Shown one piece after another: positions 9,297-47,687 of a DNA stretch of 64,000 nt (within the stretch, counting starts at the first letter, position 1; every line of letters starts with the position of its first letter). Source of the stretch: Ruditapes philippinarum (lineage: Eukaryota). The notes below the pieces were generated by a model. That model had not been told where the DNA came from and made no database searches. It was given only the letters and a program-made list of their open reading frames with translations. The stretch lies in NCBI RefSeq assembly GCF_026571515.1, contig NW_026864499.1, positions 1 through 64,000 of the forward strand, read 5' to 3'. Made by a program: the position numbers and the translations under genes.

Positions 9297-12200
9297 GGAA
9301 TATTTGAAAAGTATGAGCTTAGTTTCCTATCTTGGAATATCGAAGGTTTAACTTGTTTAGATGATGATGAATTTTTGAACTTTATTTATGAATTTGACTT
9401 TATTTTCCTTAGTGAAACGTGGCAGCACAAACCCGAGGGTTTTGACCTTGAAGGTTACCAATCTATATTTGTTCCCAGACCGGCCTCTTTATATGGAACT
9501 AGTAAGAGAGGTCACGGCGGAGTATGCTTGTATTTTAATATCTCTTTGAAAGATGGAGTTCAAATAATGGATATTGACAATAATGGTGTGATTTGGATAA
9601 AATTACTCAAAACGTATTTTGGAAATGATGATGACATTTATCTTTGTTTTATGTACATTCCTCCCCGTAGTTCTGTATATTTCAATTTACATGACATAGG
9701 TTTTTTTGAGATTTTAGAAACGAATGTACGTAAATATTCAAATATGGGCTCGGTGGGAATACTAGGAGATTTGAACTCTAGATGCGGGGTAAAAAGTGAC
9801 ATTTTAGAATCCCCAAACATTTATGAACGTTATTTGAATACTATTGATAATGATATACAATGTACCTAGTTTAGACTTGGATTTATTACCCGTTAGAAGC
9901 TCACTAGACAAAATAGTTAATTCATCGGGGATTAAGCTTTTAGATATATTGATGTGTTCTGATCTTAAGATTGTTAACGGTAGAATTGGTCAAGATTACG
10001 GAGTTGGTAATTTTACCTATATGTCAAGTACCGGTAATAGTGTTATTGATTATGCAATAATGTCGTATCGGTTATTCCCGATTATAAGTAATTTTGTCGT
10101 TCACGACATGTTTTCGTTTTCGGCACATGCTCCGATTCATATTGATTTAAAATGTTTTTGTTTAAAAAATGAAAATATAAATGAGCCTGTCATTGTCAAG
10201 AATATAAAATGGGAAAATGACCGAAACGACATATTTAGAGAATGTATTTCTTCTGATTTATCAAGCATTGAAACTATTGTTAAAGATGTAATTGATAATA
10301 ATTTAAGCTTAGATAGCGGTATTGACTCTATATCTGCTATTTTATACAAAAATTCATATGATATTTTCGGAGTTACGAAAGTCGTTAAAACTTTTAAGTA
10401 CAGACGGAAATTTAAAAGTCAATGGTATGACCAAAATTGTGAGCGTGAAAGAAAGAAGTTTGTTCATGCAAATAGATTGTATTCAAATTATAGATCTGCA
10501 CTTAATAGAGAAAATTTGATTAATAATAGACGATTGTATAGATTAGCTAAGAGGAGAGCAAAGACAAAATATCATTTAGCTCAAAAGAATAAAATGCATA
10601 ACTTATCAAAAACTTCTCCGAAATTGTTTTGGAAGGAAATAAAAAAGTTTAGAAAGAAAAGTCCCGATTGTAAAGTGTCGAGTGAAACGTTTTTTAACCA
10701 TTTTAAGAATTTATTTAATAGCCAAAATGTATTTTCAAATGATGATGTTGAACAGTGTATTAATAGTGATGATGTTATATTACAACATGTTGATATGGTA
10801 GATGAAGAAATTACAATAGAGGAGGTATCTAAGGCTATTTCTTCGCTAAATAGGAATAAAAGTGGTGGTTATGACTTACTTTTACCAGAAATATTTATTG
10901 AATGTAATGATTTATTATCTCCAATTTTAAGTAAAATTTTTAATCATATTTTCACAAGTGGATCTTATCCAACCTCATGGAATAAAGCAATTATTGTACC
11001 TGTCCCGAAAAAAGGGGATCCCGGTGAAGTAAATAATTATAGGGGTATTGCGCTTACAAGTATTTTTTCAAAAATATTCTCAGTAATCCTAGATAATAGA
11101 CTTCGAAAATGGTCAGAGGTCAATAATTTCTTAACAGATAATCAGTATGGATTTAGGAATAGTAGAAGTACTATTGACTGCATATTTGTACTAAATTCTA
11201 TTATTGATAAGATTATTAAACATGATAAAAAGAAATTGTATACTGCATTTGTAGATTTCCGCAAGGCATTTGATTTAACATATAGAAATGGTATTTGGTT
11301 CAAATTAATTGACACTGGTGTCTCAGGTAAAATGTTAAAAATTCTTAAAAGCATGTATGAGGGTGTGAAATTATGTGTACGTAATAATGGCTCACTAACT
11401 GACTTTTTTGATAGTTACATGGGCTTGAAGCAAGGGGAGCCATTATCTCCCTTTTTGTTTATTATGTTTATTAATGATATGCAAGATCATTTAGCTGACG
11501 ATAGTATAGATGTTTTTACCATTGAGGAATTACAAATTTATTTGTTGTTGTTCGCAGATGATACTGCTTTATTTTCTTACTCTGAACAAGGTTTACAAAT
11601 TCTACTTAATAAATTGTATAATTATTGTAGGAAATGGGGTATTGAAGTTAATGCAGATAAAACAGTTGTAATGGTTTTTAGACAAGGTAATAGACCTTCA
11701 AATATATCGCTTAAGTATGACAATAAAATTTTAAAACAAGTTAAAACATTTACTTATTTAGGAGTAACGCTATCATCTAATGGAAGTTTTTATCAAGCTC
11801 AAAAATCATTGTCTGCCCAAGCTTTAAAGGCTCTTTATTCTTTGAACTCCCTTTTTGATAATGTTAATTTAGATATTGAAGATAAATTAAAACTCTTTAA
11901 TTCAATGGTATTACCAATTTTATGTTATGGATCTGAAATATGGGGTTTCTATAAATCTCCTGACATAGAACGTGTATACTTAAAGTTTCTAAAACAAATA
12001 CTTGGTGTTAAACTACAAACATGCAGTACTGCAGTTTATGGTGAATTTGGTGTATTTCCTTTATATATAGTACGTAAAATTAGAATAATCAAGTTTTGGT
12101 ATAAGATTAAAAATATGCCTGACTCAACTATGTATAAATTAATGATGTTGCAAGGACGAAATAATACATTGTTAAATAGTTGGTCATGTAATGTAAAAAA

Positions 12201-12729
12201 GTTATTAGATGACCTTGGTTTTTCTTACCTGTGGAATTGTGATAGAATATCTGAAATGAATGTTAAATTAATTATTCAAAGAATCCACGATCAATATTTA
12301 CAACAATGGTTATCTGAATTAGACTCATCTTCTAAATTAGATTATTATAGAGAATTTAAGTTAAATTTTATTCAAGCTAGTTATTTAAATACTGTTAATG
12401 TCGAAGCACATATGAAAGCACTAGCGAGATTTAGATGTTCATCACACAACTTAGAGATTGAAGAAGGTCGATATAGGAATATTATTAGAAGCGAAAGATT
12501 ATGTAGAAGATGTAATATGAATCAAGTTGAATCAGAGTATCATTTTTTGTTAATATGTCCTTTTTATAGAGAATTACGATTAACTCTTTTAGATAATTAT
12601 TATTACACATGGCCTAATATGAATAAATTCAATAAGCTTATGTCAACAGCCAAAAGATCTGTTATAATAAAACTTGCAAAATTTGTCTATCTGGCTTTTA
12701 AGAAGAGAAACGAGAGTGTTGTTGTATAA
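9297..12729 (+). CDS. LINE ORF2: APE endonuclease + reverse transcriptase, one frameshift at ~9850-9865
   Basis: APE motifs SWNIEG, LSETW, GGV, YIPP, GDLNSR, SVIDY, SAH. RT motifs NYRGIAL, QYGFR, FVDFRKAFD, GLKQGEPLSP, LFADD, YLG. C-terminal C..C....VESEYHFLLICP. Confidence 0.92.
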
Positions 12730-18344: not shown

Positions 18345-19499
18345 CTATATCACAGCTACTTCCTGTACGGAAGCGTATCCTTGGTGAGACCGGAAGCGCA
18401 TATTCGGAACCCTTTTCTTCCATTTTTTGCAGACGAGTCTTATTTTATTCCGGTGTACTATCAGGAATGCAATTAATGTTAATCCAACAACTGCGAAAAT
18501 TATTCCAGTTACTGCCTTCACCGCGGTATTGGACGGAGCTTCGAGTTGTTCACACCTCAGATCTGATAATGACAAGCTCAGCACAGGTTTACCCTTGTAT
18601 GATGAATGGTACCCACCTGCACATAATAATTCCTTTTTATTGACATTTATTTTTGTTGAATTCAACCACTTCCAAGTTTCCACAAGGCCACAGTCACACT
18701 GGAATGGGTTATTGTCTAGTTTAATTACTTTAATGTCGCGTAAGTCCTCGGCCTTGTCCATGAATTCCCTCGGCAGAACTGCCATTTTGTTGTAAGAGAA
18801 ATCTATATGCGTAAGGTTCTCCAAGCAGTCTTTTTGGTTCGGTAATGAAGGTTGGTCTAGATTATTATGAGTTAGATTTAATTTTTTCAATGAAGTTAAC
18901 TGACAAAACGAGTTAGCAGCCGAAAGTGAAAATGAGAAAAATTCATTGTAACCAAGTTCCAGGATCTCTAACTTCGTCATGTCAGTCTCATTGAAAACTC
19001 TAGCGAGTTTGGTTATGTGAATACTTCCGTTCCAAACTTCATCAAAAGTGTTGGTTAAGTCCAGGTGTTTCAAATTCGACACTGAACTGAAGTACCCAGT
19101 CTTATCCGGGCTTCTGTCGACCTGCCATGCATTGTCCCGTAGAATGAGAATTTCCAAGTTTGGTAAACAATGCAAACTTTTTCCATGTATGTTGGATATG
19201 CTATTATTAGACAAATCCAAGTATTTTAATTGGTGTAAGACAAGACCTGATTCATGTTTGCAGGAGCCAACACTGTTAGCTGGCAATTCTGGGATATAAG
19301 ATCCTGTTACTGTCATATTAACCACGTTGTCTTGAATGTAATGCAACAGTTTTGTGATATCACCGTTTAACTTCTGTTCGTGGTGACACTCAACCACTTC
19401 ATCCGTACAAATACAATTATCAAAATGACCTTTACAATAATCCTTAGATGTTGATATATGTACACAAAACAGAATCAAAATCAAGAATTTGACACACAT
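18345..19499 (-). CDS. Intronless type I transmembrane LRR protein, trophoblast glycoprotein (TPBG/5T4)-like
   Basis: Signal peptide from Met at 19499 (MCVKFLILILFCVHISTS), LRRNT cysteines, LRRs (LDLSNNSI, LILRDN, LDLTNT, LELGYN, LNLTHN, IDFSYN), LRRCT NPFQCDC, TM helix, short basic tail ending YASVQEVAVI. No TIR domain. Confidence 0.85.
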   Translation of the reverse strand: MCVKFLILILFCVHISTSKDYCKGHFDNCICTDEVVECHHEQKLNGDITKLLHYIQDNVVNMTVTGSYIPELPANSVGSCKHESGLVLHQLKYLDLSNNSISNIHGKSLHCLPNLEILILRDNAWQVDRSPDKTGYFSSVSNLKHLDLTNTFDEVWNGSIHITKLARVFNETDMTKLEILELGYNEFFSFSLSAANSFCQLTSLKKLNLTHNNLDQPSLPNQKDCLENLTHIDFSYNKMAVLPREFMDKAEDLRDIKVIKLDNNPFQCDCGLVETWKWLNSTKINVNKKELLCAGGYHSSYKGKPVLSLSLSDLRCEQLEAPSNTAVKAVTGIIFAVVGLTLIAFLIVHRNKIRLVCKKWKKRVPNMRFRSHQGYASVQEVAVI

Positions 19500-19732
19500 T
19501 TTACTGTTTACACACCACAATATGTTACAAAATCCAAGTTTAAGTCGCACCTGTGTAGCGATCGCCATTTTCATTTACCTGTATAAACTTTGTTTGTCTC
19601 GTCTACGTACTTAGTGTTATGCCTGAGTGAACAGTTCAGGCTATACACAGCGATTTTAAACCGCACTTGTTTACATCGACAATACCACACTGGCGAAGGT
19701 AATTTATGACTAATTTTCAAAACCGCTTGCTT

Positions 19733-23411: not shown

Positions 23412-24190
23412 GTAGTGACCTTAAAAACACGGCCATGGAAGCTCTATAATCATGTAATAGGCTTGACAGACGTTCAATGGTGATATCATAACATATCGTT
23501 ATAATTGTGAATTTATACAATGTACAATATACATATAGATTTATGATACAAAACATAATACATATACATGATTTACTGCAAACATGTCACGGTGACGGAT
23601 AAAATCCCAATGAGGTACAACAAGAAATTCTAACATAGATCAACTGCGACATTTGCACAGAAGTTGTTGATCCAGAATTAGATCAATGGTTACCAAATCT
23701 CGAAAAAATATTTCCAATTCTGTTATGTCAAAAAGCTCATTGGAGTAGGTAAATATTTGTGCGGGCAAAATAGTTTTAATGCAGATACATTATTTCATTT
23801 GCTTATAACAAGGCGAAGCAATAACATAAACCTTTTATATCGAAATATACACGTTAAAAGAAATAAGTCACCAGAAATAGATTTTCCTTTCACAATGACG
23901 TGCAGTAAAATGTGTATTCGTAGGCAACTCTACACCAACTTGCTCCTAAGGATCTTAGTTAAGAAACTCGTAACAATCCAACAAATAGCAAGTTCTTGTT
24001 GAACATACGACTATATTATTAGTTTATACATTATGCACCACATAAAATCAACGCATTTTTCTAAGAAGTTTTAGCATATTCTGATATATTTATGGCTGTG
24101 ACTGGTATTGCTGTGGTAATGATATTTAAATTTCTATATCTTAACTGCTGTCAGATACAGGTTCATAGACTTGAACTGAAGAGAAAAGAT

Positions 24191-27100
24191 TTACTCTTTC
24201 TGGGGGAAAGCTAATCTGCTAAGAAACTGTTGAAGTAAATCCGTTTGTTGCTGCACACATTGCTGAATCTCATTTTTTAACTCAGCCTTGACCAGAGTCA
24301 ATTTATTATCCATGTTTTCACTCATTTCAGCCTTAATTTGCGATACTTGTTTAGCAACTTCTTGTGAAATGTTATCATTTGCAACTTTGAGTCTATCGTC
24401 AACAAGCGAAAGTAGTACTGACGTAGAAGCGTCTTCACTAACTGACGTATTCATTGATATGGCAGAGTCGGTCCTTGAATTTGAGAAAGGTCTGGATGGC
24501 TTTGGGGTAGAAGACCTAAATAAGACATTTGGATAAAGAGACATTGCTGAAGCGGGCGAAAGCAGATCACTGTCTTTCCCAAAAGTTTTTAATGTCCCTT
24601 CGATTGGAAGTTCTAATGCCTTCAATATATCTTTTACTGGGGTAACAATAAATCTTCCGTCATCCAGTCCGCCTTCAAGCATACCTACGAGGCTTAACTC
24701 ATCATTTTCTTCAATGAATACAAAAGCTCCAGAATCACCATTAGCAGCAAATACGTCTTCACCAGCAGAGAGTACTTCTATCTGGTTATGAAGTAAGAAA
24801 CCAGCACCTCCATGTTCTCCAACTGGATTGGAAGTTCGCACTGCTCCACCCTTCAACCGAAAAACACCACGTGTAATTTCTGTGCACCATCCATATTTGA
24901 TCACTACTGATCCTTTATTCAGCTCCTCCAGTTCACATATTTTTCCATTGCAAAAGGTCATTGGGTTTTCTTCTGAAAATCCTGAAAGACATGAATTTAC
25001 TAAGATGAAAAACTTGCAAGAGTGGAAAATACCCTTCCAAGCATATAATGTAATTAATTAAAAATATTTAAAAAATTGAAAGCAATAAAATATGTATTTC
25101 ACTACATAATGACACCTAAATAACAAGAGAGGCCAATGAAAATAGTACCAATATTTAATGTTTACCTGTCCTGTCTGAAAACCTTTGTCTGTATCGGGGA
25201 ATCGTCCGTCCACTGGAAATCTAGAGTCAAGTTTGATCAGTGCAACTTCCACACCAGAATCCCCATTTCCACCAGTGTTATACACTAAACTAACTAAGTG
25301 ACCAAACGAACGTGACCCGGGACAAATTGGTTGAAAAACAGGAACATTTGATTCTTGATCCGTCAAATGTTTTTTTCCATTACTCGGAAGTTTGTCTAGA
25401 TCGCGACAAAGAACATGCCCACATGTTATGCAACATAAACCATGTTTCGGATGTTCAAGAAATCCGCCAAGTGTGCCAGCAAGTCCATGTTCATTTTCAG
25501 TACTGCCCCTTATAGCACATCCCATCCGTAAGTTCTCAAGGTGTTCATCTGGTCGCCCGCCAAGAAATTGTTTAAACACAGCTTCGCGCACATCCACAGG
25601 ATAGTCTCCTACATGTTCAGGAAAAGGTTTCTCTTGTAATGGTATATAACCTTTTACATGAACATACAGTGTAACACATTGTCTGTCTAGAATTTTCTTG
25701 TCAGACTTGTAACCTTTAGATATTTTTGAACTAGCTGACACCATCGTTAATTTACTGTGGTTACGCATCAAGGTAGCTGAATTTTGATTGACACAGTTTG
25801 TCAGTTTAGGTAAATCTTCGAAATCTATTTCTGACTCATATTCAAGCTTGTTTATGTATTTACTTTCGGTACTGCATATGGAGGCCTCTCTTTCATATGT
25901 TCTGAACACATCTCCGATACCTAAGTCGCGTTGATTAGCTTTTATTACAACAAAAGTGATATTGTCCAAAGCAGTTGTCGTATCTTTATCGTAAAAATAT
26001 GCTGGCCATATGTCTATATAATTTTCAGATGCTTTTCCCCGTAAATATTTGCAGACTGATATGCATATATCAGATACAATCAGGGAACATCTTCCGAAAA
26101 TCGAACTTGCCTTATCCAGCAAATCTTGATCTGGAAGCTTTCTTTCTTTTAGCAGTGTACCGATTTGATTATGGTCTTGGAGTTCGAGGCATGACAACCA
26201 GGCTGTGTGATCTAAAACAGATAAAGAACTTGATAGTTATTTTTACCATCTTCCAATGGAAATTATTAAGAGTCCATTTTTAAAAGTTATTATCCAATGT
26301 ACAATGAATAACAAGACATTTATTATCGTAACTCGATTTTAAAAAAGGCACCGTCCCCAAGTGATAAAAGGCACCGACTTGCTAGGGAGCGTGGAAGGAA
26401 ACTTGCCTTTTTTCAACTTTTTTTTGAACAGGCTCGATCAAACCGAGCAGTCTGCATCATTTTCAATTTTGTCGTTTTAGGAGTTCTTTAAGGATTTCGT
26501 TTTTCTCTATTTTTAAATCAATTGCCCCTCACCACTGCTTGCACGACAGCTATCAATGTAGCTTTAAGGAGGTCGGCGGTTCTAATCATGTGCCCACATG
26601 AAGACGCACTTGAGGTCTTCCTCCACAAGTTAAGATAGAAATGTACCTTGTGACCTTTACAGTGTAACATAAAATACAAGAAAACAAACAAACAAAACAA
26701 TCATCAACATCTTATTTATCATAAGACGATGTTTTGGTATACGCCCAACAGTTTATTTTAATGCCACTATTATAGGGAGAGGCACTTAGATTTACCCTTG
26801 TCCGTTCGTCCGTTCTCATGTTGTGTTGCACGTAGCTTAAATAGTATTTGATCTTTAGTAATAACACTTCACATGAATATTGGTCGGCATGTGTAGTTGT
26901 GCACCTGGGCGTTTGCGTGTGTATTTATTCAACATTTTAGAGTTATTGCTCTTGACATTGTAAAAATTTGCAATTTTCAACTTGTGTGTCAAACGTTACT
27001 CTAAAATATTTGTCCTAGGGTCATGGAACTTTACAGGATTGTTGCATAGGATGTGAAATTGTGTGCACTTCTTGGGATTTTGCATGTGGATTTATTCTGT

Positions 27101-30100
27101 TTTGTCAGACTTATGGCCCTTGACTTAGTAAAAATTTGCATTTTTCTGTTTGTGTCGTATGTATTGACCTAGAGTCATAAAATTTAACTGGAATGATGGT
27201 CAGCATATGTTGTTGTGCACCTGGGGGTTTGCTCGTGGATTTTTTTCAGTTTTTGTAGGGTTATTGCCCTGACTTAGTAAAAAGCATTCCCAAATGTTGT
27301 GTTATGTGTGTCTTAAAATCAACCAACTTTAAAGGAATAATGAGATCAATATCATTGTGACGCTGTGTACCAGGGTGTTTTTCGTGGGGATTTTTTTTCT
27401 GTTTTGTTAGAGTAATTTTCAATATTCAACTTGTTCATGCATAGCTCAAAAAGTATTTGATCTATATTCCTGAACGTTTATAAGAATGTTGGTCAGCATG
27501 TTTAGTTATGCACGTTGAGGTTTGCTTGTGGTTTTATTTAGTATTTGTAGAGTTTCTGCCCTTGGCGTAGTAAAATACTTTCAGTTTTTTTTCTTGTGTC
27601 GCATGTAGCCCAAAATATATTTGACATAGAGTCAGTAGATTGACAAAACAGGGGAGTGTTGGGGCACCCGTATCTTTAGACACATTTCTAGTATTGTAAT
27701 CCATTTATCATATGTGAATGGATGTTGTAGATTTCATAACTAATGCACAGACTATGTACAATGTCTCTTTCTAGACATTTATACCTGTATGGTATTTAAG
27801 CATTAAGTACCAGTTTAATATGTTTCATTTGTACAAGTTTTTCTGCATAGATTTCACTGTTTTTGTGAACGTATTATATACGTTTACGTTAATCTTACTC
27901 TATGACCCTTTTCGCCATTATTATGTGTCTAATATGATCAATTATGTACCTATTTTCCAATCATCCTTCTGCGACATTTCCATCGATGTTTCAGATGTGA
28001 AGTTTTCTATGTATTCCCCCAACGTCGGTTTAAATATGTCCTTATTTCGAGTTCCAGTTTCTCTCTGAAGATTGGTTTCATCAAACATACACGTTGTTTC
28101 TTTCTCATTCGAATCGTCTGTTATATTTGTGTTATCGGAACATTCAGACTCCGAATTACTTTCTTCACTTTTGTCATCAATATTGTCACCAGCCTCTGTG
28201 AATTCTGTTAAATTATGTGACGTCGGTCTTTCAAATATAGACTTCTCATCTGAAAATGAACAACTTTGCAAGATAGCATGATTTGGCTGCGTTGATTGTT
28301 ATCATTCCTTTCTTATACATGTTCTTATATAATAAATCGTGTCTTTTTAAAACTATTTTCAGTTCCCTTTTAAATTCCCATATATTGAAACAAATTGACT
28401 GTTAACATCTCATCAAAACAGGTTTTTTTATATAATTATTATAGTATTATGAACATTTTGTAGGATAAAATGATATTAAAATCTTTTTATCCTAGCATAG
28501 CTTTCTTTCATTATTGTGATGAAGGAAACTATAATTATGCTTGACAGTACCAGTTAGGAAAGAAAGAAATCCAGAGGATTTCAGATGTATTACAGTATTA
28601 CACTATCATTGTATAATACAGTGTATATATATATATGTACGTAATTGTCAAAGATAACAAAGGCGCATTTACAAACAATAGAAGATTTCATTGTGTAACA
28701 CAGTTTATCTTCACTTTAAACCATTTGGTTATAAATGCACAAACTGTCTTTACCACTTTACTTGACTGATATAGTTGTTTATTTATATCATGTACATATC
28801 TTATTCAAACAGGTAATCAATTTTGGGCAATACCTAAAATATCCCAGGATAAACATTTAACAGTGGATGTTGTCTCGATAATAAAACATGCATTCTGAAG
28901 GTAATTCATAATTTCAATTACTGAATTCCATAGATTGTTTTGGGGTATCATTTTCATGTGTATATAAATAATTTATTTGTTTTTAAAATACATCATTAAG
29001 GCACTTACTACTGTATTTCCTTGAACAAACAGTACTTGTATCCGTCTACAAAAAATATAATTTTTATGAGATTGTTTTAAATGTAATAAAATACGTCTTC
29101 AATGAATGCTATTCTAAACTAGATTTGTATGGTGATGTTTTTTTAGTTCAATTATTACAAATGTAGCATTTCAAAATCACGATATAATCTTTAAATTATG
29201 TACAGTGTTAAGCATGAATTGATTTGGAGACATTTTTTTGTTTCGGTTCAATTATGATTCTCATACAGGTAGTCGTCTATTCCTTTCCTATATTCCTATA
29301 ATATAAGAAAATAACAAGAACTGTCATTATTACCTGAGTGTCATGGTCAGCTGTATCACTGTCACATTGTACTTTGATCCTTGGACACTGCTCCACCCTT
29401 TCAATTGCATCACGAACTTTACCCAGGCATTTGTTTAACTCAGCTATGTCAGAATGCAATCTGTTTTCAACGTATTCAAACCGTTCTTGTAGTCTACATT
29501 CTTTATCAAAAGCAAAAAAAGAATGGAGCATGTCCTCGATATCTTTGACACAGTTGATCATATATCCCATCTTTTGTACATCAGAACCATGGTAAGCCTC
29601 GACCGCATGAGCAATATGTTTGTGGTTTACCATTCCAAAACCCTGAAAAGATTTTTTTTGAATTGTGCAAGTTGTAAAGGATACATATTTAACTGACGAT
29701 ATTTGATTACTAGTTTTTCTTTGCAAATAAATACACACTCCAAATTTAAACAATACCATATAGGTAATTCTGATTAGAGATTCATCCCGACTTGTAAACG
29801 ATGGTACATGTAAGAAATTGAAATAAATTTCATTAACATTCTTAGATCTATATTATCAATTTCTAATCCGTTATCATCAAACCTGTTCGGGAATTGTTTG
29901 GCAAGTAACCGGGGTGATCTGTCCATGACCATCATAACCTTCCTCTCTGATTTCAATATGAAACTTTCGCTGTGATTGAGAATGCATGTCATGTGCATCA
30001 ATATGCAAGGGGTCATCATTTCCTAAAAAATCATTAAATATTCCATGAAAATGTATAGATAAACACTAACACAAATAACAAAAGAAAACAACACACAAAA

Positions 30101-30454
30101 ACGGCGTTTTATTATTGTAGTAATATTATGTGTAATTGTAATTTTGGAGCTTGCAACATTTTGCTCTATTGAGCGACTTAAAATGTTTCCATTTTGGATA
30201 AAATAGCTTTAAATTACACAAAACCTTTTGTAACACGAGTAAAATGCATATAAAGCAAAATGAATCTTGTTTATGAGCTCTTTGTTCTTGGGTTATATTG
30301 AAGGATTAATACCACTTTCCAAGAGCAGTACACAAGGAAGGCTTATATCGGAAAAATATTGAACACCCTGTTCCCTATGCACTCTGTAATTATTGTTGGT
30401 GATATCATTTCCAGACTCGTCATCAGAAATACTGTCGTCTTCATATTCATCCAT
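24191..30454 (-). CDS. 7-exon gene, ~900 aa: unknown N-terminal region, acidic linker, NAL1-like trypsin-fold serine protease, C-terminal coiled coil
   Basis: Exons 30454-30313, 30022-29883, 29642-29334, 29045-29009, 28249-27950, 26211-~25170, 24981-24191. The first five introns are phase-compatible GT-AG; the last donor is ambiguous. Motifs FPEHVGDYPVDVRE, GTLGG, ITCGHV, GVEVALIKL, KYG.CTEITRG, FAANGDSGAFV, LVGMLEGG. Confidence 0.75.
26520..26700 (+). mobile_element. Degenerate SINE copy in an intron
   Basis: GGTCGGCGGTTCTA...TGAGGTCTTCCTCCAC...TGACCT followed by an (AAAC)n tail. Confidence 0.65.
26755..27692 (+). mobile_element. Non-autonomous Helitron/Helentron-like element with an internal ~150-170 bp tandem array (~5 units)
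   Basis: 5' box with (GTCC/GTTC) microrepeat. Repeated TGGTCAGCATGT.TAGTTGTGCAC..GGG...GCCCTTGACTTAGTAAAA units. 3' end GGGGCACCCGT...ACACATTTCTAGT. Confidence 0.75.
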
Positions 30455-31282: not shown

Positions 31283-31512
31283 GTGATAATCGTGATGGTG
31301 CTGATGATGATGATGACGTTGGTGTTGTTGATGATGGGTATGATGGTGTTGGTGGCGATATTGGAGATGGGGATGATGATGGTGGTGGCGGGGATGATGG
31401 AGATGGTGGCGGTTATGGTAATGATGAAGATGTTAGTAAAGATGATAATGATGACGGTGGTGACGATCCTAGTGATGGTGGATTTTTTTTCTTATGTTGA
31501 TTTTGATGATGA
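31283..31512. repeat. Degenerate (GAT/GGT)n trinucleotide repeat
   Basis: Direct inspection. Confidence 0.85.
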
Positions 31513-35169: not shown

Positions 35170-36215
35170 CTATTTGAACAACACTGAACATACAGCAAAC
35201 AAAATAAGAAATGCGATGTTATATTCTGCTGAAAGGGCGCTGTTGAGCTCAGAGTCCAAACACACGAGGTCTGACATGGACAGATCAATGATTGGTTTGT
35301 AGTAGATCCGCGGAATTATTTCATCTGCCGTGCAGTTTAACTCACTTTTATTAACTGGAACGGTGGTTTCGTTTAACCACTTGTAAGTGGTTATAAGTCT
35401 GCAGTCGCATACAAATGGATTGTGGTCAAGTTTTACAAACCGAAGATTCTGCAGTTGTTCAAGTTTGTTCATAAACTCTACAGAAAGTGCTTGTATCTGA
35501 TTGTAAGAGTAATCAATCATTTCAAGACTATCCAAGCAACCTGTTTCCATTGGTAATAAAGCATAATGGAGATCATTATTGTCAAGGTTCAATGCCTTAA
35601 GGGCTGGCATGTGGCACAGAACGTTTGTGGATAAGAATGAATCCGTGAACAGTAACTGTTTGTTGTTACTAAGCTCCAGAGTTTCTAGCGAAATATAATC
35701 CGAGTCGCCAAATATTCTTGCCAGTGGAACGACCTGGAGATCGTCGTCCCAGTCTCCATAGAACGTGTTCGTCAAGTCTAAATATTTCAGAGAGGGAAGA
35801 CTGGCAAAGTAATTTGTGTCAAACGGCATGTTGGAAATTTTCCAATTATTGTTCTTCAATATAAGAGTTTCTAAGTTAGGAAAACAATGGAAGGTCTTCC
35901 TGTGAATTGTTGAAATGTTATTATTTGACAAATCCACAGTTTTTAAACTGAGTAATTCCAGAGACATATCATGTCTGCACGAACCAAACGTATTGGCCGG
36001 TAATTTTTGTAGATTGCTGTCAGTAATGGTAATAGAAGTCACATCGTCTTTGATATAATGAAGCAATTTTGTAATATCTCCAGACAGTTTTTTCTCATAA
36101 TGACATTCCACTTCATAATCCGTACATATGCAATTTTCAAAATGATCTTTGTAATAATCCTTTCCTATAACAGTTTGAACACCAAGAACAAAAACAAACA
36201 GGTTATTAAAACCAT
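35170..36215 (-). pseudogene. Second TPBG-like LRR paralogue; 1-nt frameshift in the signal peptide (pseudogene or assembly error); GPI-like C-terminus
   Basis: Collinear with the 18345-19499 protein (KDYYKDHFENCICTD.EVECHYEKKLSGDITKLLHYI; NPFVCDC). ATG at 36215 gives MVLITCLFLF, and GVQTVIGKDY continues in another frame. Ends ...NSALSAEYNIAFLILFAVCSVLFK. Confidence 0.75.
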
Positions 36216-39200
36216 TGTAAATATAAAATGCGTAGTATTGTCCGACATTATAATATTGTGTAAAACATTATGTAATTGTGCTCACAGAATACACTCACGT
36301 TACTTCAGTGAGCGATAGTGGAACATTCGACCGATGCGCAGAAGAGTAACATCACAGATGCGGGAATATCTCAACTCCACTAAGGCATTACGTAAACTAC
36401 ACTACATAGAATTAACATTACAAACGCACTAAACTATATTTCACATGCTTCAGGTTTGAAAGTTTGCATGAAATTTGCAGATATCCAATTCAAGTATGAC
36501 AGTGACCGTTTATTATATAGTTGACATGAAAACTAAATAAAAATCAACATTTAATTAATTAGAACTTTGCAATCGAAGTACATTTTTATGATGAATAAAT
36601 CATAACACTGATTAGAATATGATTTTAAAATACAGGTAACCTTAAATGTAATTATTCAAATTTTGATGGGGGACAAAACAACAATCAGAATAATTGTATT
36701 CATATTGTAAGAATTAAATTGTGATCGGCTCTTGGAAGACAAGTGATTTTAAATTTCAAGGTATTCTACTTCTGTTCAGAAATCTGTTCTAAATAATAAT
36801 GTGTATTAATTTTCTTTATGATTATATAAAAAAGCAAGCATATATATTATGTTTCTGTGCGTGGTAATTGCAATTACAAAGTTGTCAGTCTTGCGTATTG
36901 CACCATCATTTTTCGTTATTATGCCATAGAATATTTGATCTTTGAATCGTGCATTAATTATTAAATAAATAACATATATGTTTGTGGGAAATAGTAACCA
37001 TGACATCCCGAGGAAAATACTGTTACCCGAGACTGTAACCGCATCTTTACGAAGAATTTGTTGTTGTTTTCACAAAATAGAGAAAATAAGAAGCCCTAAT
37101 GATATTCCAAAACGGTAAAATTGAAAATGTTGCAGACTCGAATGAGTGAGCCTCATGGACTGTACTGTCAAATGCAAACTACCGTCCACGACCCCTAGCC
37201 CCAGCTTAAGCATAACTCAACATTTAAGAATGAAAATGGTGAGATTTTGAATTTAGTAGCATCTGCAGATGTGTTCATACGGCGGTAATAATGGAGCCTT
37301 CTATGTGACACGTAGGTGCCATCCACAAATAGCGGCGTATGGTCCCCAAGCAAAGCAAGCGTGTGCCCTAAACGAGAAAACAATAGGCGGAACTAAGCAA
37401 AATGGAATTTTGAAAGGGGTCAGAGGTTATGAAGCCTGCATATATGTTTTACAATTATTTCATTACGCCAATCAAATACTTCTTTGTGGGACATTGTTTC
37501 TATAGGATTTTATTTTTAAGAATTTGACTATGAAAAACTACTGTTACATATTTAATAGTACAGCAATTTTAGTCACATACATGACATAATACACTTGAAT
37601 TAACAGTACGAATAACTCAACTTATGTACAATTACCATTATAAAAAGTGAGGAATAATAATACATAATGTGTTCCAAAATGCGTTAAACATATATTTTGT
37701 AGAAACAGTCTGATTATAATGTTTAAATCACTTAGAACAAGAACTTGTAAGAAAATAACGTTGACTTGTTCTCCAACACAGCACATACGAGTTATCGTAG
37801 TTATCTGAAAAGACAAAAAAAATTTATATAAAATCAAATCACACACAAAAACAAAACAAAAGGACACAACTTTAATATTCCTAGATAATAAACATGTTTC
37901 CGAGTTTATGGGCAAAAAGTATTGATGCGTTTTAATTTCATTTTGTTTTTTTGTAAGATGTGCAAGCCAATATCATTCTGTCATCTTTTTCTTGATAGCC
38001 CGGAGCTTGACAGGTAGTGGACGATTCAGAGTATTGGAAGTGACGTCAGCTTCGAAACTTTGAGGAACATTAGGATCTTCTCGTAGAAAACTGAAGTTCT
38101 GAAGCAATGTCGTAATTACAAGGAACATCTCAGTTCTTGCCAATGCCTCACCCATACAAACTCGTGGTCGTGTATAAATGATATGATGAAACAAGGTAGT
38201 AATTATTGTTTTTCAATATCAAATACTAAAAGTCTAAAATTCGCCAAAATACACATAAAGTGAAACTTGGTGGCACGTCTCTAAATCAGTGAACTAACTT
38301 AAAGAAATCAAAGTGATGAAAAATACATGTTTTTAGACATAAATGACTATTTACAGTCAATATGAAAATAACAACTTATGCAAATCCGTGCAACTTTTAC
38401 ATTAAAATTATATCCAATCACTTTCAGAGTAAGAGATTTTCTGAATGTTTGGACCAGAATTGGTAACTGCCTCAGCGAAGGTTAAGTCATTAGATCTAGA
38501 CTTAACAACATTTTAATCATAAGAACAGTTTTTTCATTAAAGTTTAAATAAAATTCAACGCAAAGTATGGCATCTTCAAAGCTGGAGTCATTACAAATCA
38601 CTTGCTTCCTAACATGACTATGTTGACGAGGCAAGATGTCTAAGTCATTTTATCCTTTGCCCCTGCTTAAGATGATAGTTTTGGAAACGTTGAAAGGTGT
38701 TTGTGGGGGACAACGTTTTACTTGTACTGAATAAGCAATTGCGCAATTGAATATGTCTGAACATATGACTGAACAAAAAAAAAACAATTTTATGATTATG
38801 TCAATATAAGGGAATGGAATTTTTATTAGTTAAACCTTCAAAATATCTCCATTTATTAAATAACTATACCTGTTGATAAAATGAGAGTACAGCTGAATGT
38901 TAAAAAAAGAACATAGCTAGTCATTTTATTTCATTTTATTTCCTTTATTTTATTTCATTTTAGAGAGAAAAATACATCTGACTAATATTTTACCACTGGA
39001 GTTCTTACGTTGAGTTTATAGCACATTTTTGTTCAGAGTTTATTTTGTGTATATCTTTATTACCTGTTTATATATCTTATATATTGCTTTGTACGAGAAA
39101 TCATACCCGTGGAAAATGGTACGTATGGCAAGTTGTTTATCAGTTGTCCTTCCTCATCAATGAACCTTCCGGGATCAAATTTCTCTGGATCTTTGAAGAG

Positions 39201-40364
39201 GTTAGGGTCCATGCTAACTGAGTATTGCATCGGAAGTATGACAGTACCTTTAGGTATATGAAAACCAGATAGTGTTGTATCTTCACTTGTGTAATGTGGC
39301 AGGTTTAAGGGAACTAAAATGAAATAAAATAAAGACACTAAAATGAAATCGAGTTCGGGACTTCGAATTACATCATGTGCTAGACGAGAAGGTCTGTTGT
39401 TCTATCTAAGTGCTTGCCAGTGCTTGAAATTGTTCAATGAGGAGCAATTGAGGTCGTCACCGTAAACAACAGCATAAATATCCCATTGGCCTTTATAGCG
39501 CCGTTGGTGACTGTCTGTACACGCAACACTGTATTCATTCATATGTTTGTACGGAAGATTTCTCATTACAATGCGCATACGCAACGTCATCTTTGTTTAG
39601 AGGGGGGGGGGGAGTAATAAACAATGATTAATACGAACAGACAAGGTTAAATTATGTCATTTACGAGACGTGATGAAGCAAAAAGGACTAACATAAGATC
39701 TACAAACATCCTCAGTGCCACCTTCTTAAACAAAACAATGTAAAACGAGCGTTAGTGACTTCCAAGAAGAGCAGTGTCGTGAGTATTTGCACAGTTAGTT
39801 GCAAAGAATTACAATTTGTACTTTAAAATTAAAATTGCAATCATTGAAATCGGAGAATGTCATCGGAAGATAAAATGTTTTAGCTATTTGAATATCATAA
39901 TATTATGATTTGCGCAATTTCCAATTTTGAAAGTTTTTTTACAAAGATAAATGTATTTGAATCTATCTTAAGTTGAGTGCTGTTGAAATTTCGATACATG
40001 CAAAAAAGCATTGTACATCCATCAAAGCAATCATACAAATACAAACTCAATGTATATGTATATTAAAGTGACATTATGCTCATATTGTCATAGTCAAGTT
40101 GAGCTGAATTGACTTGTAATTTCAAAAGATTGGCTGATAAAATGGTGTTTGACCAACATTTATTTATGGAAAATGTTTAGGATAAGGACATCACATAAAC
40201 CATTATTTTGTAATTATATATATTCATGTCATGTGTCATTTATGTATTATATTTTGTATTTGTATATGTAATATGGTGATGAGCTTTTTATGCTTAAACC
40301 AAGAAATAAAGTTTCTGTGCTGTTTCTGTTCTGTTATGAATTAACATTAACAAAGACTTTGAAT

Positions 40365-40570
40365 CATTCGCTTCAATCAGGGTCTGTTCGAATCCTGCTA
40401 GGAAAGTGTACATTTATAGTGAGCTTTCAAGAAAATTTTCCACGGAAGTCGATTTTAACCTAGCTTGTAGTAAGTCGGGGCGACAAACCGGGACCTCTCT
40501 CTTCAAGCCACCATTGAAGCTGAAAAGTGTCATGACGTATAGACAGTTTAAATATTATCTTAAACCGAAA
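40365..40570 (+). mobile_element. Degenerate SINE copy
   Basis: B box GTTCGAATCC, core ...CCACCATTGAAGCTGAAAAGT... Confidence 0.55.
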
Positions 40571-42966
40571 AATGAATAGCACTGCAGATGAATGAATGAA
40601 TAAATCAATGAATACCTGGAAAAGGAAGGGAGGGAGGAAGGGCCGACTGAGCGAACGAACGAATAAATTGTAAAAATTGTTTACTACGTTTAAAAGAAAT
40701 AATATAATTTTTGATATCTAATTTGATATCAAAAAGAAATTGTAACTTAAATTCATATGCATGCTTGGTATCATTTGGTAGTACATTGCAAAAAACAAAA
40801 ACCTAAAGAAACGGACTTAGTCTAACACAGTCAGGTAACTGTGCTATATACTAACTTTCACATAAAATGTTTATATTATTCAATACCGTTTAAATTTCCT
40901 TCTGGCATTTTTCGGTACCCGCGACAAATAAATCAACTATGACCCAAAACATGCTGTCCCCTATTCGAAAAAGAAAGACGAAATGAATAGGTTACTAAAA
41001 TACATTATTTGTTTAATATAAAGTTTGATATTTAGTATGCTATATAGCGTTATCTACATTAAGAATGCCATCGTTAAACACTTGAGAAAATATATGATAT
41101 GCTAAGGTTGTTTAGGCTCTTTCTAGTTCCAACTGTTCGTGCCCATCATTATTTAAAGAATTTGATATAAGAAAATATTGACAATTGCTACACAGTCTCT
41201 TTGTAAATATAAAATAAACATGCTTTGACTTCACACAAAGTAGATATGTTATGTATAAAATTCTATACCCTATAGGTGGCCACAATATGAATTTATAGTG
41301 TCATAAAAAAACAAGCAGTTTTTTTTTTCAAGAAAAGACCAAATTTACTTGACCTGTAATAGGAAACACAGATACTCAAACATAGTTCAATATTTTATGC
41401 AAATGAAAAATATTCAGTTAGAATTTCATATATTTCAAATAATTCCTGCGATTAAATATATTTTACTCAAGGATGAACATAGTATATCTTTAAATGCACC
41501 CTGTTTCAATCAATATTTGCTAAATTGGAGACAATTTGTGATATGATAATCTCATTTACTTTATTTCAGAAAAATAACGTTATGCTAATTTGCATATTCA
41601 ATGTTTCAGACGATGTTTTATACTCAATGAATTCCGGTCCTGATTTTCCAGAGTATTTTTGCGAGAAACGTTCGTTACTATTTATAAAGGCATCTTCCTC
41701 ATCTGTCTTGTTCCTGTCAACGTCTAAATATAGATCAAGGAAGTCTCGTATATTAGCAGGATCAAATGTGCTTCTGTGCTCTTCAATTTGTTCACCAACA
41801 TATTTTGCGATATCATTCATGACCACTTTCCTCTTTTCCTCGATCTCGGAATCCTTACAACGACAAAAAAAATCGGAAATATTGTAGTTTCGTTTCAACG
41901 ACATTGAACAGACAGACTGGTTCCTCAGTTCAAATGTATGTATAAAATACAGGCAGATGTTTCACACTGTGCTGATGTAACTATGGAATAATATTTGCAC
42001 AAGTTAATTGTTTGTCACAAAAATAAATATTTGGTAAATTTTTTGAAATAAAATACAAAAAGCGACCACTCTTACTATATTTTTTCATATAATTTTATAA
42101 AACAAAACAAAATAAATACTTCATATAAAGAAACCTGGTTTACATAAAAATACAGTGAAGTTATCGCAAATAAATGACTCCAAGATATTCAGCATGAATT
42201 AAACATGTGAAAAGAAGTACATCTTTTGATCTTATGGTTAACAGATGTCATCCGGAACTCGGCAAAAGGTTTTTCCCCAAGCTTATCCGTGGTACAAACA
42301 AACTTTTACCGTTATATAGCACATCACAATAGATTAGACTTGTCGACCTGTTGCACTTATTTTCGAAGCTGTAACTGTATAAGTTTGTTTGAACATACGG
42401 ATTAGCTGGGAAAACACAAAATATCCTTAACGGACTTGCTCCGGAGAATAAAGAATATTTTGGGTTTTCCCAGCTAATCCGGGGGTACAAACAAACTCTT
42501 ACGAAATAGGCGTAACAGGTTGACTAATGTGTTGTGACCGGTAGTGCCACGTGAAGCTATTGATTAGCATGGAAAAACCCACATTTGCCGAATTCTGGAT
42601 AACGACTATTCCGGAGTTGGTCTATTCCTGATAACCCTAAGGGGAAATATTACCGTTTTCTTGACGAATTTAGCCAGGAACTCCGGCAAAAAGAAAGCAG
42701 CACTAACAGACGAAGCACTGTTGAGAACATCCGATAACTCCGTGATCCGATCTAATTCTAGGTCATCGTAGTCGAACCTAAGGATGTACAGTGAAAATTT
42801 ATTAAAACTGTAGGTTGGCAAATTTATTTAAAATGCCCTCACAAATGCTAAGGATAAGGGGCCTGAATTTGGACGCGACGTTATGTCTTACAATGATGGA
42901 CATTAAGACGCAACACGTGATATGACACATTTCAATACACAAAGTGAATTAGCCCATAATGGAAAG

Positions 42967-43296
42967 TATGGTGGCTGATTTGTGCCATTCTTGTTTTCGC
43001 CCCGCGACTCCGCCATACGAAATGTGGAAAATTAACAGGTTAAAATGGCAGGGGCGCGGAGCAAAAACACGCTAGTTAGCGTGGGCGCGGTTCGAAGTTT
43101 ATTAAAATAACTTCAATCCGCGGGGCGCGGAGCGAAATTGAAGAAATAAAACTGCGGGGGCGCGGGGCGAAGTTTAGAAAATAAAACTTCGCCCACGCTA
43201 ATTAGCGTGTTTCGCCCCGCGACCCCGCCAAGCGAAAAATCGAGAATTAGCAAGTTAAAATGGCGAAAACACGATTGGAACAAATCAGCCACCATA
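42967..43296. mobile_element. GC-rich foldback-type MITE in CYP pseudogene intron 2
   Basis: TIR TATGGTGGCTGATTTGT.CCA...GTTTTCGCC with GGCGAAAACACGATTGGAACAAATCAGCCACCATA. Nested internal inverted repeat AACACGCTAGTTAGCGTGGGCG / CGCCCACGCTAATTAGCGTGTT. Confidence 0.9.
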
Positions 43297-43315
43297 GGAA
43301 GATCTGTTATATAAC

Positions 43316-43532
43316 TTGTTTGTTTCTTTGTTTCATTTTACGCCTTTCCCAACAGTATTTCATTCATATAGGCGGGTAGTTTCCTAACCATCGTTCCTGG
43401 AGAGTTACACCAGTACTAGACTACAATCCTTCGTGCTAAACTACCAAGCATCTCCCGGGGATGGAACCCACGTCAGAGAGGTAACTTGATTAGAAGTCAT
43501 ATCGGCTCTTATCCCTCGACCACGGAGGCGGT
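43316..43532 (-). mobile_element. tRNA-derived SINE of a second family
   Basis: Minus-strand head CCGCCTCCGTGGTCGAGGG (A box) and GGGTTCCATCCCC (B-like box), with an (AAAC)n-like tail. Confidence 0.6.
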
Positions 43533-43560
43533 CTGTAATATAAACACCACAAAATGTTTC

Positions 43561-43645
43561 TGTGTGTGTGCGTGTGTGTGTGCGTGCGTATGTGTTGGTG
43601 TGCGTGCGTGTGTTGGTGTGTGTGCGTTTGCGTGTGTGTGTGTGT
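43561..43645. repeat. (GT)n/(GCGT)n microsatellite
   Basis: Direct inspection. Confidence 0.95.
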
Positions 43646-45351
43646 TGTTTTTTTCTTCTTTTGGTAAAGGTGAGAAACATTATCCGATATAGCAGATTTT
43701 AAATTGTTCCAGAACAAAATATTATTATTGTAAATATAAATATTTTTACAATATCACTTTAAAATGCTATCGCCATTTTTTTTTCAAGAAATATTTCATT
43801 TTGCGTGGAATCTGTTGCCGCAGTATGCACTGTGAATCAAATATTCAAAATTTTACTGGATTTAGTTTGTGTATGATTACCTTTTACCAAAAATTATTTC
43901 ATAATTGACGTTAGCGACTAATTTCCGCACGAGATCACTTATGGATACGGGTTGACCATCGGCTGCTTCAAGTACATCAGTGACGACCTGAATTTCAAAA
44001 TTTATTTTCTCTTCTATAGGTCTCCCGACACCAAAATCATGTAGTGCCCGTTGCGTACTCGCCAATATTGACCATAATTACTCCACACTATACCTGCACG
44101 AGGTTTAAACTTTTCATGCTTAATAATTGAGGAATACACCAAGAAAATGAGAATTTATAATTATTATTATAAGTGAAAAGTATTTTAAAGATATATTGAA
44201 AAGTATTAATTATGGCTGTAATATTCATAAATATCGCAAACATCTTAACTGAATTTTGTAAACTTCAGTAACTGTACATCTTTACAAATTGATGTGAAAT
44301 AACAACATGGTGTCATTTCTCACATATTTGTGGTGCGTACAGATGTACAATGTAAGTTATGATACGAATATTTATTTATGCATCTTGTTACTTACAGTGA
44401 AACCTGTGAACAGAAGTCACCTAAAGGAGATACCAAACATTGGTTTTTAAGTTTTGGCGGTTACTCTGTTCTATTAAATCAAGGTCGTTGAAAAATGTTT
44501 TTTACAGGGTAAACTCAGCACAGAGATATTCTTAAACACAAACTGAACATGTTTTATATTTTTTTCTAAGATTCAATAAGAAATTATAGGTCATGTATTA
44601 CTCACATGTATTATTTTTTAAATGGTTTTTAAACAAGGTTTTAAAAATAATGTGCATTTCTTCATTTTTAAATCAATAAGTTAATAAAACCACTATTGGA
44701 AAAACATAAATTAAACTCATTTAGGATTAAGGTGAGAAGACATATACAAGTTCCAGGGCAACATTTGCCTAAATGTATGAAAAGAAGGACCCACCTTTTG
44801 ATGCACCTGTAACTTCCCCTTTGTTTTCAGGTCTGTCGCTGAATATTTCTGCTTTCTCCACCAGAGCCTCGTTTATGACGTCGATTCCACTTAGAACCAC
44901 AAACATTTGATTCCCTAAGTACCATCGGAAAACGCTTCCATACTTTCTGGCCTCATCAGCAAACACTAAGTGATTCCTTCTTTTTGAAAGTTTGTACAGT
45001 AAAAATATTGAACCAACGATTGGAAATTTAAAATGTCCGGGTGGTTATTTGCTAGGGGTTCTTACAATGTACCACGTCACACAAAATATTACTATCAGCA
45101 TTAAAGTAACAGCGAATTCCATATTTATTTTCCAAGTAATTTTAAATGATATGCCATACTCCATGACAGCTTTTTAGGTGTAAATTTGATCGTTAATATA
45201 TCTTAACATCTCCTAACATTGAAGTAAAGTCATATTTGAGCCCAAGGTTTTACAAAACATATAACTTTACACGCATCAACAAATTTTCATAGTAAGGCGA
45301 CTGTTTTTGGTATAATATTACACATTACATTTTGATGTAAACAGTTTATAC

Positions 45352-45508
45352 ATAGAGGATATTGAGTGAGTGTAGTTCAATATTAAATTTATTGAACGAG
45401 TTGAATAAAATCATATTATGCGAGCCTCTGGCGAGCATAATAGTTTTTTTATTCAACGAGTTCAATAAATTTAATATTGAATCTACACGAATATAATATT
45501 CTTTTTAT
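45352..45508. repeat. ~155-bp imperfect palindrome, end of an interspersed DNA element
   Basis: TTCAATATTAAATTTATTGAAC...TTGAATAAAA / TTTTATTCAA...GTTCAATAAATTTAATATTGAA around the loop GCGAGCCTCTGGCGAGC. Confidence 0.85.
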
Positions 45509-46029
45509 CACATATATAAAACAAAAACAATAAACTGTTAAAATGAGTAATTTTTCAATGACGCGTTTATAGTGGTATGCTAACATTAGCGCGCTTTAAC
45601 ACTATGTTTCTATATAGTGCAAATGACGTCACGTCAAGGTGTTATTACACTAGTGTAATATCGTTTTTATTTGTTTGGGTCGTCAGACCAGACAAATAAT
45701 GGTAGCGAAATTTCAGACTCTACTGCTGTTAATTGCAAATGCCGAAAGTAGTCCGCTTTTTTGAAGCGGTTACTTCCCTTTATATGTACACTAACGCCGA
45801 AAAATTTAGGGGAGATCACTGCGTAAAGATGGTCAAATGACAGGCGCATTAATTTTCAATTAAAATAACTCCTGAATGGTCGAAGATTTCTAATATTGTT
45901 TTATATTCTTTATAGATACATATTCTTATAGTAAGCTCCATGAATATTTACATCTGTGTCAAACAACAGTTAGCGTCGTTACAAACCCTAATTTAGAGTA
46001 ATATGGTTTTCTTGAGGCCGTTAACATAG

Positions 46030-46108
46030 AAATTCACCGTGGCCGAGGTGTTTGCGCGCTTGCTTAGGAAGCGAGAGGTCTGGAGTTCAAATCCCAGTTA
46101 AGGCAACT
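46030..46108 (+). other. tRNA-like remnant (Pol III A and B boxes), not a functional tRNA
   Basis: GTGGCCGAGGTG ... GAGTTCAAATCCC, then a T run; no convincing acceptor stem. Confidence 0.5.
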
Positions 46109-47542: not shown

Positions 47543-47687
47543 GAAAGAAATTGTAAGATAAAAATAAATGTGAGCATATACTTCTACATGATATATTGTT
47601 ATTTGTTACGACACAAACAAACAAAGAGATATAAGTTATTCTGATGCGTTTGATTCACACAATTACTTAAATGTTTGTCAGTGAATA

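Follow-up and report, generated by a model that had tools for sequence, protein, structure and literature searches.

A predicted NAL1-type serine protease of Ruditapes philippinarum, one paralogue of a large bivalve family and a candidate effector of innate immunity

To our knowledge, NAL1-type proteases have been characterised only in plants, together with Ssy5 in yeast. What, then, is a gene of this appearance doing in a clam? The question is raised by a spliced gene on the minus strand of a 64,000-nucleotide (nt) stretch of the Ruditapes philippinarum genome (assembly GCF_026571515.1, contig NW_026864499.1, positions 1 to 64,000; hereafter the window), which runs from an ATG at 30454 to a stop at 24191. 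A preliminary description, made from the DNA letters, had proposed an uncharacterised, signal-less intracellular protease resembling plant NAL1. We find that the gene belongs, as one of many paralogues, to a large and fast-turning bivalve family and that its predicted product is a cytosolic NAL1-type serine endopeptidase. The reading that we favour, at a probability of about 0.55, makes it an effector protease of innate immunity or cell death in bivalves, which lies latent in the cytosol until activated by clustering.

The resemblance to NAL1 is seen by both profile and fold. When the family profile was compared with the 177,635 sequences of the PDB, rice NAL1 was found at E 2e-9 and no other protease below 0.25, the value of the best of them, a trypsin entry; a single-sequence search with the relative P0001 gave nothing significant. 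Because the window protease is split by an intron, another relative, P0048 (40% and 39% identical to the two protease exons of the window), was folded in its place, giving a model with a predicted local distance difference test score (pLDDT) of 92 and a predicted template modelling score of 0.90. Foldseek ranks NAL1 chains first against this model (E 4.3e-14), followed by alpha-lytic proteases (1e-8). The Foldseek-free fold search VIA aligns model residues 125–483 with NAL1 residues 87–449 (Z 24.3, root-mean-square deviation 4.8, 299 residues aligned), the runners-up being Lysobacter L5 (Z 18.4), Deg1 (13.8) and human HtrA2 (11.9). NAL1 is the best match in these profile and fold searches, in which no animal protease family comes close to it, and the proposal of a NAL1-like, signal-less, uncharacterised enzyme is upheld. 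FAM111 is absent among the matches listed in the profile and fold searches, in which NAL1 is clearly closer than the others; no direct pairwise comparison with FAM111 was made. For the window exons no Pfam match to Nal1_C or NAL1_N is listed (cut-offs 26.1 and 27 bits), and relatives reach at most 21.8 bits for Nal1_C and 14.4 bits for NAL1_N. These scores below the Pfam cut-offs, and a Glu for Asp in the catalytic triad, are the reasons why, judged by its sequence, we class the protein as NAL1-type and not as a member of the plant NAL1 family.

Rice NARROW LEAF 1 is known from PDB structures 7Y77, 8PMG and 8PN2 and corresponds to the Pfam families NAL1_N (PF25608) and Nal1_C (PF25819) (PMC12012508). 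The clam protein shares with NAL1 a trypsin-fold protease without a signal peptide, an alpha/beta domain ahead of it and the order of the motifs; in the P0048 model this domain, of the ATP-binding type, stands directly before two six-stranded barrels. Unlike NAL1, to which it is only ~15–17% identical, it has an extra domain (A) and a probable coiled-coil tail, and its family is much expanded, with variable N-termini in the relatives that include NLR (nucleotide-binding, leucine-rich-repeat receptor), death-fold and HEPN domains. An AlphaFold model of residues 1–213 of window exon 6, made from an 83-row alignment, has a pLDDT of 93.8 and resolves two alpha/beta domains, so that the single prodomain-like segment placed before the protease in the preliminary description is present but is in fact two domains. 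The first, domain A (25835–26209, minus strand; about amino acids (aa) 311–435), consists of a helical cap and a small alpha/beta domain and is found family-wide. It has no clear structural relative: the best fold matches reach Z 5.5 and are KH-II, BON and alpha-lytic prodomain-like entries, and TRADD-N is absent among the 50 matches listed. That domain A is a duplicate of domain B was considered and found unsupported (profile alignment probability 6%).

Domain B (25571–25834, minus strand; about aa 436–523) is the equivalent of the ATP-binding domain of NAL1, which comprises aa 89–172 (PMC12012508) and is taken in by the span of P0048 aligned to NAL1. A bacterial open reading frame (ORF) very close to rice NAL1 (L085:1408-2466, minus strand; an amidase gene comes after it) matches NAL1 at E 3.7e-70 over 346 residues and the family profile over domain B. 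As it bridges the two, NAL1 K139 and D166-V167 could be placed in columns of the family alignment, where Lys occupies the K139 column in 180 of 186 rows and Asp the D166 column in 171 of 186; the window residues are Lys496 (25652–25654) and Asp516 (25592–25594). The ATP contacts of NAL1 are R120, R122, K123, K139, D166 and V167, the basic patch lying in a loosely aligned loop. Since the K139 and D166-V167 columns are near-invariant, nucleotide binding by domain B is plausible.

The trypsin-fold protease itself (24608–25531, minus strand; about aa 537–781) is split by the last intron. Its predicted catalytic residues, aligned with NAL1 H234-D291-S385, are His575 (25415–25417), Glu631 (25247–25249) and Ser740 (24731–24733). 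The motifs noted beforehand are all present in the translation (LMRNHS at aa 457, GTLGG at 555, TCGH at 572 and GDSG in the last exon, with VTLYVH at 489), except that we infer the triad acid to be Glu631, within GVEVAL, and not the Asp of the D.AL pattern first given. Also borne out are the lack of an IVGG activation site and of a signal peptide (the best 19-residue hydropathy in exon 1 is 0.72 and the N-terminus is acidic), and the acidic linker, exon 5 being 26% Asp plus Glu. Upstream, aa 1–94 are acidic and aa 95–197 helical with a strong heptad pattern (score 0.88); this helical segment, encoded by exon 3, has no relative beyond the Mercenaria orthologue and no ESM Atlas match above 0.81. 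Downstream of an S/P-rich linker lies a probable coiled-coil tail (about 24215–24412). Weak coiled-coil matches of the family profile make the terminal coiled coil of the preliminary description likely, although a crude heptad score does not rank the tail first. A tail longer than 70 aa is present in 50 of 135 relatives.

How large is the family to which the gene belongs? The family profile scores 372.6 bits on window exon 6 and 167 on exon 7. With a 23-row profile the number of clusters, defined at 50% identity, is 4,300 for a threshold of E 1e-3, 983 for 1e-10 and 407 for 1e-30, and the best 150 of the 4,300 were inspected; the taxa are those of the clusters looked up. Among 30 looked up, 27 carry a name, all bivalve (Mercenaria, Mya, Dreissena, Saccostrea, Mytilus, Mizuhopecten and Tegillarca, nearly all described as "uncharacterized" or "hypothetical"), and three are without one. 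Ruditapes contributes many further members, and a hand count gives at least 27 Mercenaria locus identifiers, some on small contigs and possibly haplotypes. The ESM Atlas search ranks second a 74-member, all-eukaryote cluster whose commonest phylum is Cnidaria (0.97 by features), and has plant NAL1, bacterial and cnidarian clusters at 0.95–0.97; that the family extends beyond bivalves, for example to Cnidaria, is taken from this as a lead only.

Across 189 family proteins the active site is invariant in two of its three positions: wherever a row covers the site, His is present (175 of 175) and so is Ser (141 of 141). The column of the triad acid holds Asp in 100 proteins and Glu in 73; in the 136 rows complete at all three sites the numbers are 84 and 52. 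On a tree of these 136 rows the acid changes 13 times, compared with 41.8 for shuffled labels, and removing five isoform rows leaves 14 changes on 131 rows. The switching between Asp and Glu takes place within the clam clade: every row of the tree named as a mussel, oyster, scallop or ark shell has Asp. An apparent covariation of the Glu triad acid with a Glu 20 residues after the Ser (39 of 52 rows, against 11 of 84) vanished in independent pairs (1.3 of 8 pairs in the same direction, 1.2 in the opposite one) and was dropped.

What suggests an immune function is the company that the protease keeps in its relatives. A module of ~480 residues (domain A, domain B and protease) sits behind many unrelated N-termini: the 73 N-termini of at least 150 aa, isoforms and three bacterial rows counted, fall into 37 unrelated groups, the largest of which (17) is NLR-related. 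A Pfam scan of 44 long relatives recognised a domain at the N-terminus in 17. DUF4559 occurs in seven (one of them, P0066, also with NACHT), nSTAND3 in two and NHL in two; DED, ubiquitin, HEPN_DZIP3, HSP70, FN3 and ankyrin are found in one each. Elsewhere in the family P0001 carries NACHT, P0004 a weak CARD, and a RING domain is also seen. NLR-body sequence lies upstream of the module in P0001, P0007 and P0008 (Ruditapes), P0058 and P0066 (Mercenaria) and, weakly, P0097 (Mya). That the ubiquitin fusion P0069 is a single open frame on a 2,676-nt contig suggests that some of the fusions are real. Domains of this kind are oligomerising sensors or docking adaptors. The fusion partners correspond to the list of variable partners described for oyster immune expansions, namely death-like, STAND, HEPN, ankyrin, beta-propeller and HSP70 domains (PMC8195603), and DUF4559 is reported in 45 of 99 Corbicula NLRs (PMC8298618). 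The immune or cell-death role considered in the preliminary description is therefore supported indirectly, by domains fused to relatives, none of which is present in the window gene.

How such an enzyme might work can be sketched from these features. The two N-terminal alpha/beta domains would keep the module latent, and clustering of several copies would switch it on. In the relatives, clustering could be brought about by the fused NLR or STAND NTPase, or a DUF4559, DED or CARD domain could dock on a matching receptor in the manner of a caspase; in the window paralogue the handles for clustering might be the helical segment near the N-terminus and the coiled coil at the C-terminus. The active enzyme (Ser740-His575-Glu631) would then cut a host protein, relaying an immune or cell-death signal. 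FAxxGDSG is present in most rows, with Gly-Gly following the last strand, a pattern that can be read against the specificity of streptogrisins for a large hydrophobic residue at P1; cleavage after such a residue is our guess, made by that analogy. Activation by oligomerisation is likewise proposed by analogy, in this case with NAL1, in which the correct triad requires the hexamer (PMC12012508). A trimer prediction for P0048 residues 140–472, run without use of the alignment, scored 0.01, a result that counts neither for nor against such clustering.

Caspases, which act as effector proteases in NLR/death-domain signalosomes, offer a functional parallel: they too are placed behind DED, CARD and STAND domains and show lineage-specific expansion in bivalves. 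Their fold and chemistry (a Cys-His dyad) are unrelated, and the analogy is one of domain architecture only. Among enzymes of similar fold, secreted animal trypsins (S1A) differ from the clam protein in that it lacks a signal peptide, the IVGG site and a Pfam Trypsin match, and HtrA/Deg proteases differ in that it has no Pfam PDZ match and in their lower fold scores (Deg1 and HtrA2, as above, against 24.3 for NAL1). Alpha-lytic protease and the streptogrisins, which we take to be family S1E, are the second-best fold class (Z 15.8–18.4), and for domains A and B the highest-ranking match, a weak one, is to their pro region; they are secreted with a signal peptide, whereas the clam protein is signal-less, spliced and multidomain. 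Yeast Ssy5 (MEROPS S64, PF08192) is also intracellular and signal-less with a long N-terminal region, and the barrel bearing the Ser matches its Pfam profile: in an exon-by-exon scan, Peptidase_S64 meets window exon 7 at E 7.6e-5 and 21.8 bits (cut-off 23.6), and one of 15 relatives, P0012, exceeds the cut-off with 27.8 bits. The prodomain part of the Ssy5 profile is without a match in the clam protein, however, and there is no SPS-sensor context. Ssy5 itself is controlled by autolysis and a phosphodegron.

Both characterised relatives suggest a different employment (PMC12012508; PMC6761765). The clam protein could be a regulator of development or metabolism that trims transcription regulators, working either as a constitutive cage or under inhibition by a prodomain; the fusions of immune appearance would then be side products of a family prone to duplication. 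The retention of the ATP-contact positions K139 and D166-V167 would suit this, as would the N-terminus of the window gene, which is acidic, of low complexity and without an immune domain. We nevertheless consider it rather unlikely, as dozens of paralogues per genome, 37 N-terminal groups and an orthologue identity of 59% in exon 6 fit immune birth-and-death better. A further alternative makes the long acidic linker a tripwire, a bait for pathogen proteases or ubiquitin ligases, with loss of the N-terminus freeing the protease as degradation of the prodomain frees Ssy5. Ssy5 remains inhibited by its prodomain after autolysis (PMC6761765), ubiquitin and RING domains occur among the family N-termini, and alpha-lytic pro regions head the Foldseek matches of domains A and B. 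Those pro-region matches are non-significant, though (E 0.086; Z 4.0), and in NAL1 the equivalent domain remains attached and builds the oligomer (PMC12012508); we regard the tripwire as distinctly improbable.

Is the window gene itself intact? When intact it has seven coding exons and encodes 919 aa. Four of 24 listed public sequencing runs (X1, X16, X21 and X23) were compared with the window, and X1 was taken as RNA on the strength of its spliced contig. All exons are on the minus strand. Exon 1 (30313–30454; aa 1–47, acidic) is supported by the fit of the GT-AG phase and by 50% identity over 42 aa to P0191 (Mercenaria LOC123534679), the closest annotated orthologue. Exon 2 (29883–30022; aa 48–94) is 45% identical to it over 40 aa in the frame chosen; the alternative frame (EMMTPC...) was dropped as P0191 matches the other. 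Exon 3 (29334–29642; aa 95–197), helical and coiled-coil-like, is 36% identical over 104 aa. Exon 4 (29009–29045; aa 198–209) has only 37 nt, with canonical AG and GTAAGT ends, and is included because the reading phase requires it; an X1 contig over exon 5 has 72 more letters upstream, which fit exon 4 without being proof of it. Exon 5 (27950–28249; aa 210–309) encodes the acidic linker and has an X1 contig piece at 27951–28249. Exon 6 (25171–26211; aa 310–657; X1 piece 25169–26211) carries domains A and B and the first half of the protease and is 59% identical to P0191. Exon 7 (24191–24981; aa 657–919) encodes the second barrel with the catalytic Ser, the S/P-rich linker and the probable coiled-coil tail, and is followed by a 3′ untranslated region of at least 23733–24190 (X1 pieces 23888–24979 and 23733–23884). 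X1 pieces begin or end within one base of the exon limits 28249, 27950 and 29642, and an RNA-type contig starts at 29641; the junction of exons 6 and 7 is the only one read directly. The 37-nt exon is to be added to the preliminary description. In the intron between exons 5 and 6 lies a high-copy repeat (26327–27868, strand not assigned), at a word depth of 3e4–4e5 in X16 against ~100–300 on the exons; it is also abundant among RNA reads.

The gene was described previously as having a spliced ORF of about 900 aa. The spliced minus-strand gene is confirmed, but the frame is not open as written in the window, because a tandem 5-nt duplication, overlooked at that time, precedes the exon 6 donor. 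The extra copy (25166–25170, minus strand) shifts the frame: with the strong donor at 25165 and the acceptor at 24982, a stop is reached eight codons into the last exon, upstream of the catalytic Ser. The duplication is absent from all three runs informative at the site. In X16, a DNA-type run, the five letters are missing at 115.7 of 115.7 depth in one contig; in X21 the only raw RNA read over the site is without them; and in X1 a 2,166-nt contig of depth 60 joins 26211–25169 gaplessly to 24979–23888, an in-frame junction of the two protease exons, so that transcripts joining these exons do exist. The gene is therefore transcribed and spliced in frame in other animals, yielding the 919-aa protein, and the window copy is probably a rare allele or an assembly error, null unless the weak in-frame donor at 25182 is used.

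These data also bear on whether the paralogue is decaying toward a pseudogene within a functional family. The frameshift of the window allele would fit such decay, as would raw RNA depth that is low or nil in two of two raw runs, and the Mercenaria orthologue P0191, which breaks off at this junction, so lacking the Ser, and carries a Pro in its GTLGGF strand; moreover, 40 of 409 listed differences were inspected, and other individuals may hold further lesions. The three runs without the duplication, the in-frame X1 contig and the intact triad and domain B residues speak against it, and we think it improbable. The Mercenaria locus (P0191/P0083) ends just past the exon 6 junction and has Asp where the window has Glu. 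At the protein level, the last residues of P0191 look like the last exon read in this shifted frame; if they are, a separate frameshift must have arisen there at almost the same position.

Several observations weigh against the latent immune effector that we favour. The window copy has a frameshift, and the orthologue annotated in Mercenaria likewise stops ahead of the Ser; over the exons, X21 gives a low raw RNA depth (0–3.6 per mate and bin) and X23 gives none. Neither a Pfam scan of the exons nor the Atlas search recognised an immune domain in the window gene, and 27 of the 44 long relatives, its orthologue included, are without an N-terminal Pfam match. The fusions are read from gene models, some of which may be annotation chimeras; at least two seem to be chimeric with mobile elements, P0004 holding an integrase core and P0141 starting with a reverse-transcriptase-like piece. 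No PADLOC family was matched by more than one of 23 members. The Glu of the triad is placed there by its alignment column and by nothing else. Finally, the characterised NAL1-type enzymes regulate transcription factors and not immunity (PMC12012508; PMC6761765). A wider proposal is that NAL1-type proteases are an unrecognised executioner or signalling class of invertebrate NLR/death-domain complexes, doing the job of caspases in bivalves and perhaps cnidarians, with a clam subclade switching repeatedly between Ser-His-Asp and Ser-His-Glu triads; we put this forward tentatively, the odds being somewhat against it.

Could the gene instead be bacterial contamination or a recent transfer from bacteria? 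Bacterial genes top the ESM Atlas listing, and the family profile finds NAL1-like genes in five of 401 genomes sampled from one bacterial phylum. The gene, however, has six spliceosomal introns, a spliced transcript and a GC content similar to that of its flanks, and its relatives are found in venerids, Mya, Dreissena, oysters, mussels, a scallop and an ark shell. Contamination is excluded by the introns, the GC content and the spread over bivalve orders, and the explanation as a whole has a very small probability. A tree of 36 rows was built from 29 animal rows, 27 with bivalve names, and seven bacterial ones, three of these under half filled. The animals fall on one side of a long branch with support 83, and the length of the branch to the bacterial rows is a further point against a bacterial source; as it is unrooted and without plant, fungal or cnidarian rows, the tree is uninformative on transfer.

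The bacterial and viral relatives are simpler proteins. Fold comparison matches two viral models, BFVD A0A0N9MU75 and A0A7S9XDX3, at E 1e-14; tblastn gave no phage or plasmid match, a search of genome contigs with clam patterns confirmed none of 156 stretches as a relative, and one of metagenome contigs none of 123. Like the clam module, the bacterial and phage proteins (L083–L086 and the two BFVD models) combine domain B with the protease; unlike it, they are single modules of 300–370 aa with an Asp triad, some accompanied by a free small partner ORF in place of a fused domain A. Three of the bacterial genes are at L083:1230-2595, L084:1021-1944 and L086:1147-2508, one beside a phage capsid gene and one near a Bro-N gene. 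Directly after the genes of L083 and L086 comes a small ORF that, by eye, resembles the protease's own N-domain; profile comparison of domain A with two free partner ORFs gave probabilities of 2% and <1%. The P0208 family (L001–L080) comprises acidobacterial proteins of 750 aa that have a hydrophobic leader at the N-terminus, a NAL1-like protease and, at the C-terminus, two repeats. Of 219 candidate stretches 89 were confirmed as members, and the family has no Pfam match.

In the window, the gene lies between two leucine-rich-repeat (LRR) membrane-protein paralogues, as noted beforehand (18345–19574 and 35170–36267, 47.6% identical over 336 aa), and nothing ties them to the protease; the second stops right past a hydrophobic stretch and the first has a tail of ~35 residues. 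A degenerate GAT/GGT microsatellite at 31290–31480 produces several spurious open frames. Further away are a long interspersed nuclear element (LINE)-type element (8451–12729, plus strand) with ORF1-like, endonuclease-like and reverse-transcriptase ORFs (RVT_1 E 2e-36) and a frame change between the last two, and a 572-aa ORF with a weak Transposase_21 match (690–2408, minus strand; E 0.0065). On the other side are exons of at least two cytochrome P450 genes (39060–53082, minus strand) and a 307-aa open frame without a Pfam match (58429–59352, minus strand), the end of which looks Ig-like by eye.

A literature search, made without most subscription papers and supplements, found no paper on an animal NAL1-like family and none on a Ser-His-Glu trypsin-fold serine protease, and the main text of the Mercenaria genome paper (PMC8905726) contains no occurrence of protease, peptidase, NACHT or trypsin. 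The large bivalve NAL1-type family is thus apparently unstudied. If the proposed role is true, animal innate immunity would gain a further class of protease, with an active site kept invariant over hundreds of animal members and with immune-domain fusions, and the family would be a concrete candidate for the effector that bivalve NLRs switch on. The natural switching between Asp and Glu in a trypsin-fold triad would provide a ready-made test of catalytic tolerance, and loss-of-function alleles could be relevant to the disease resistance of farmed clams.

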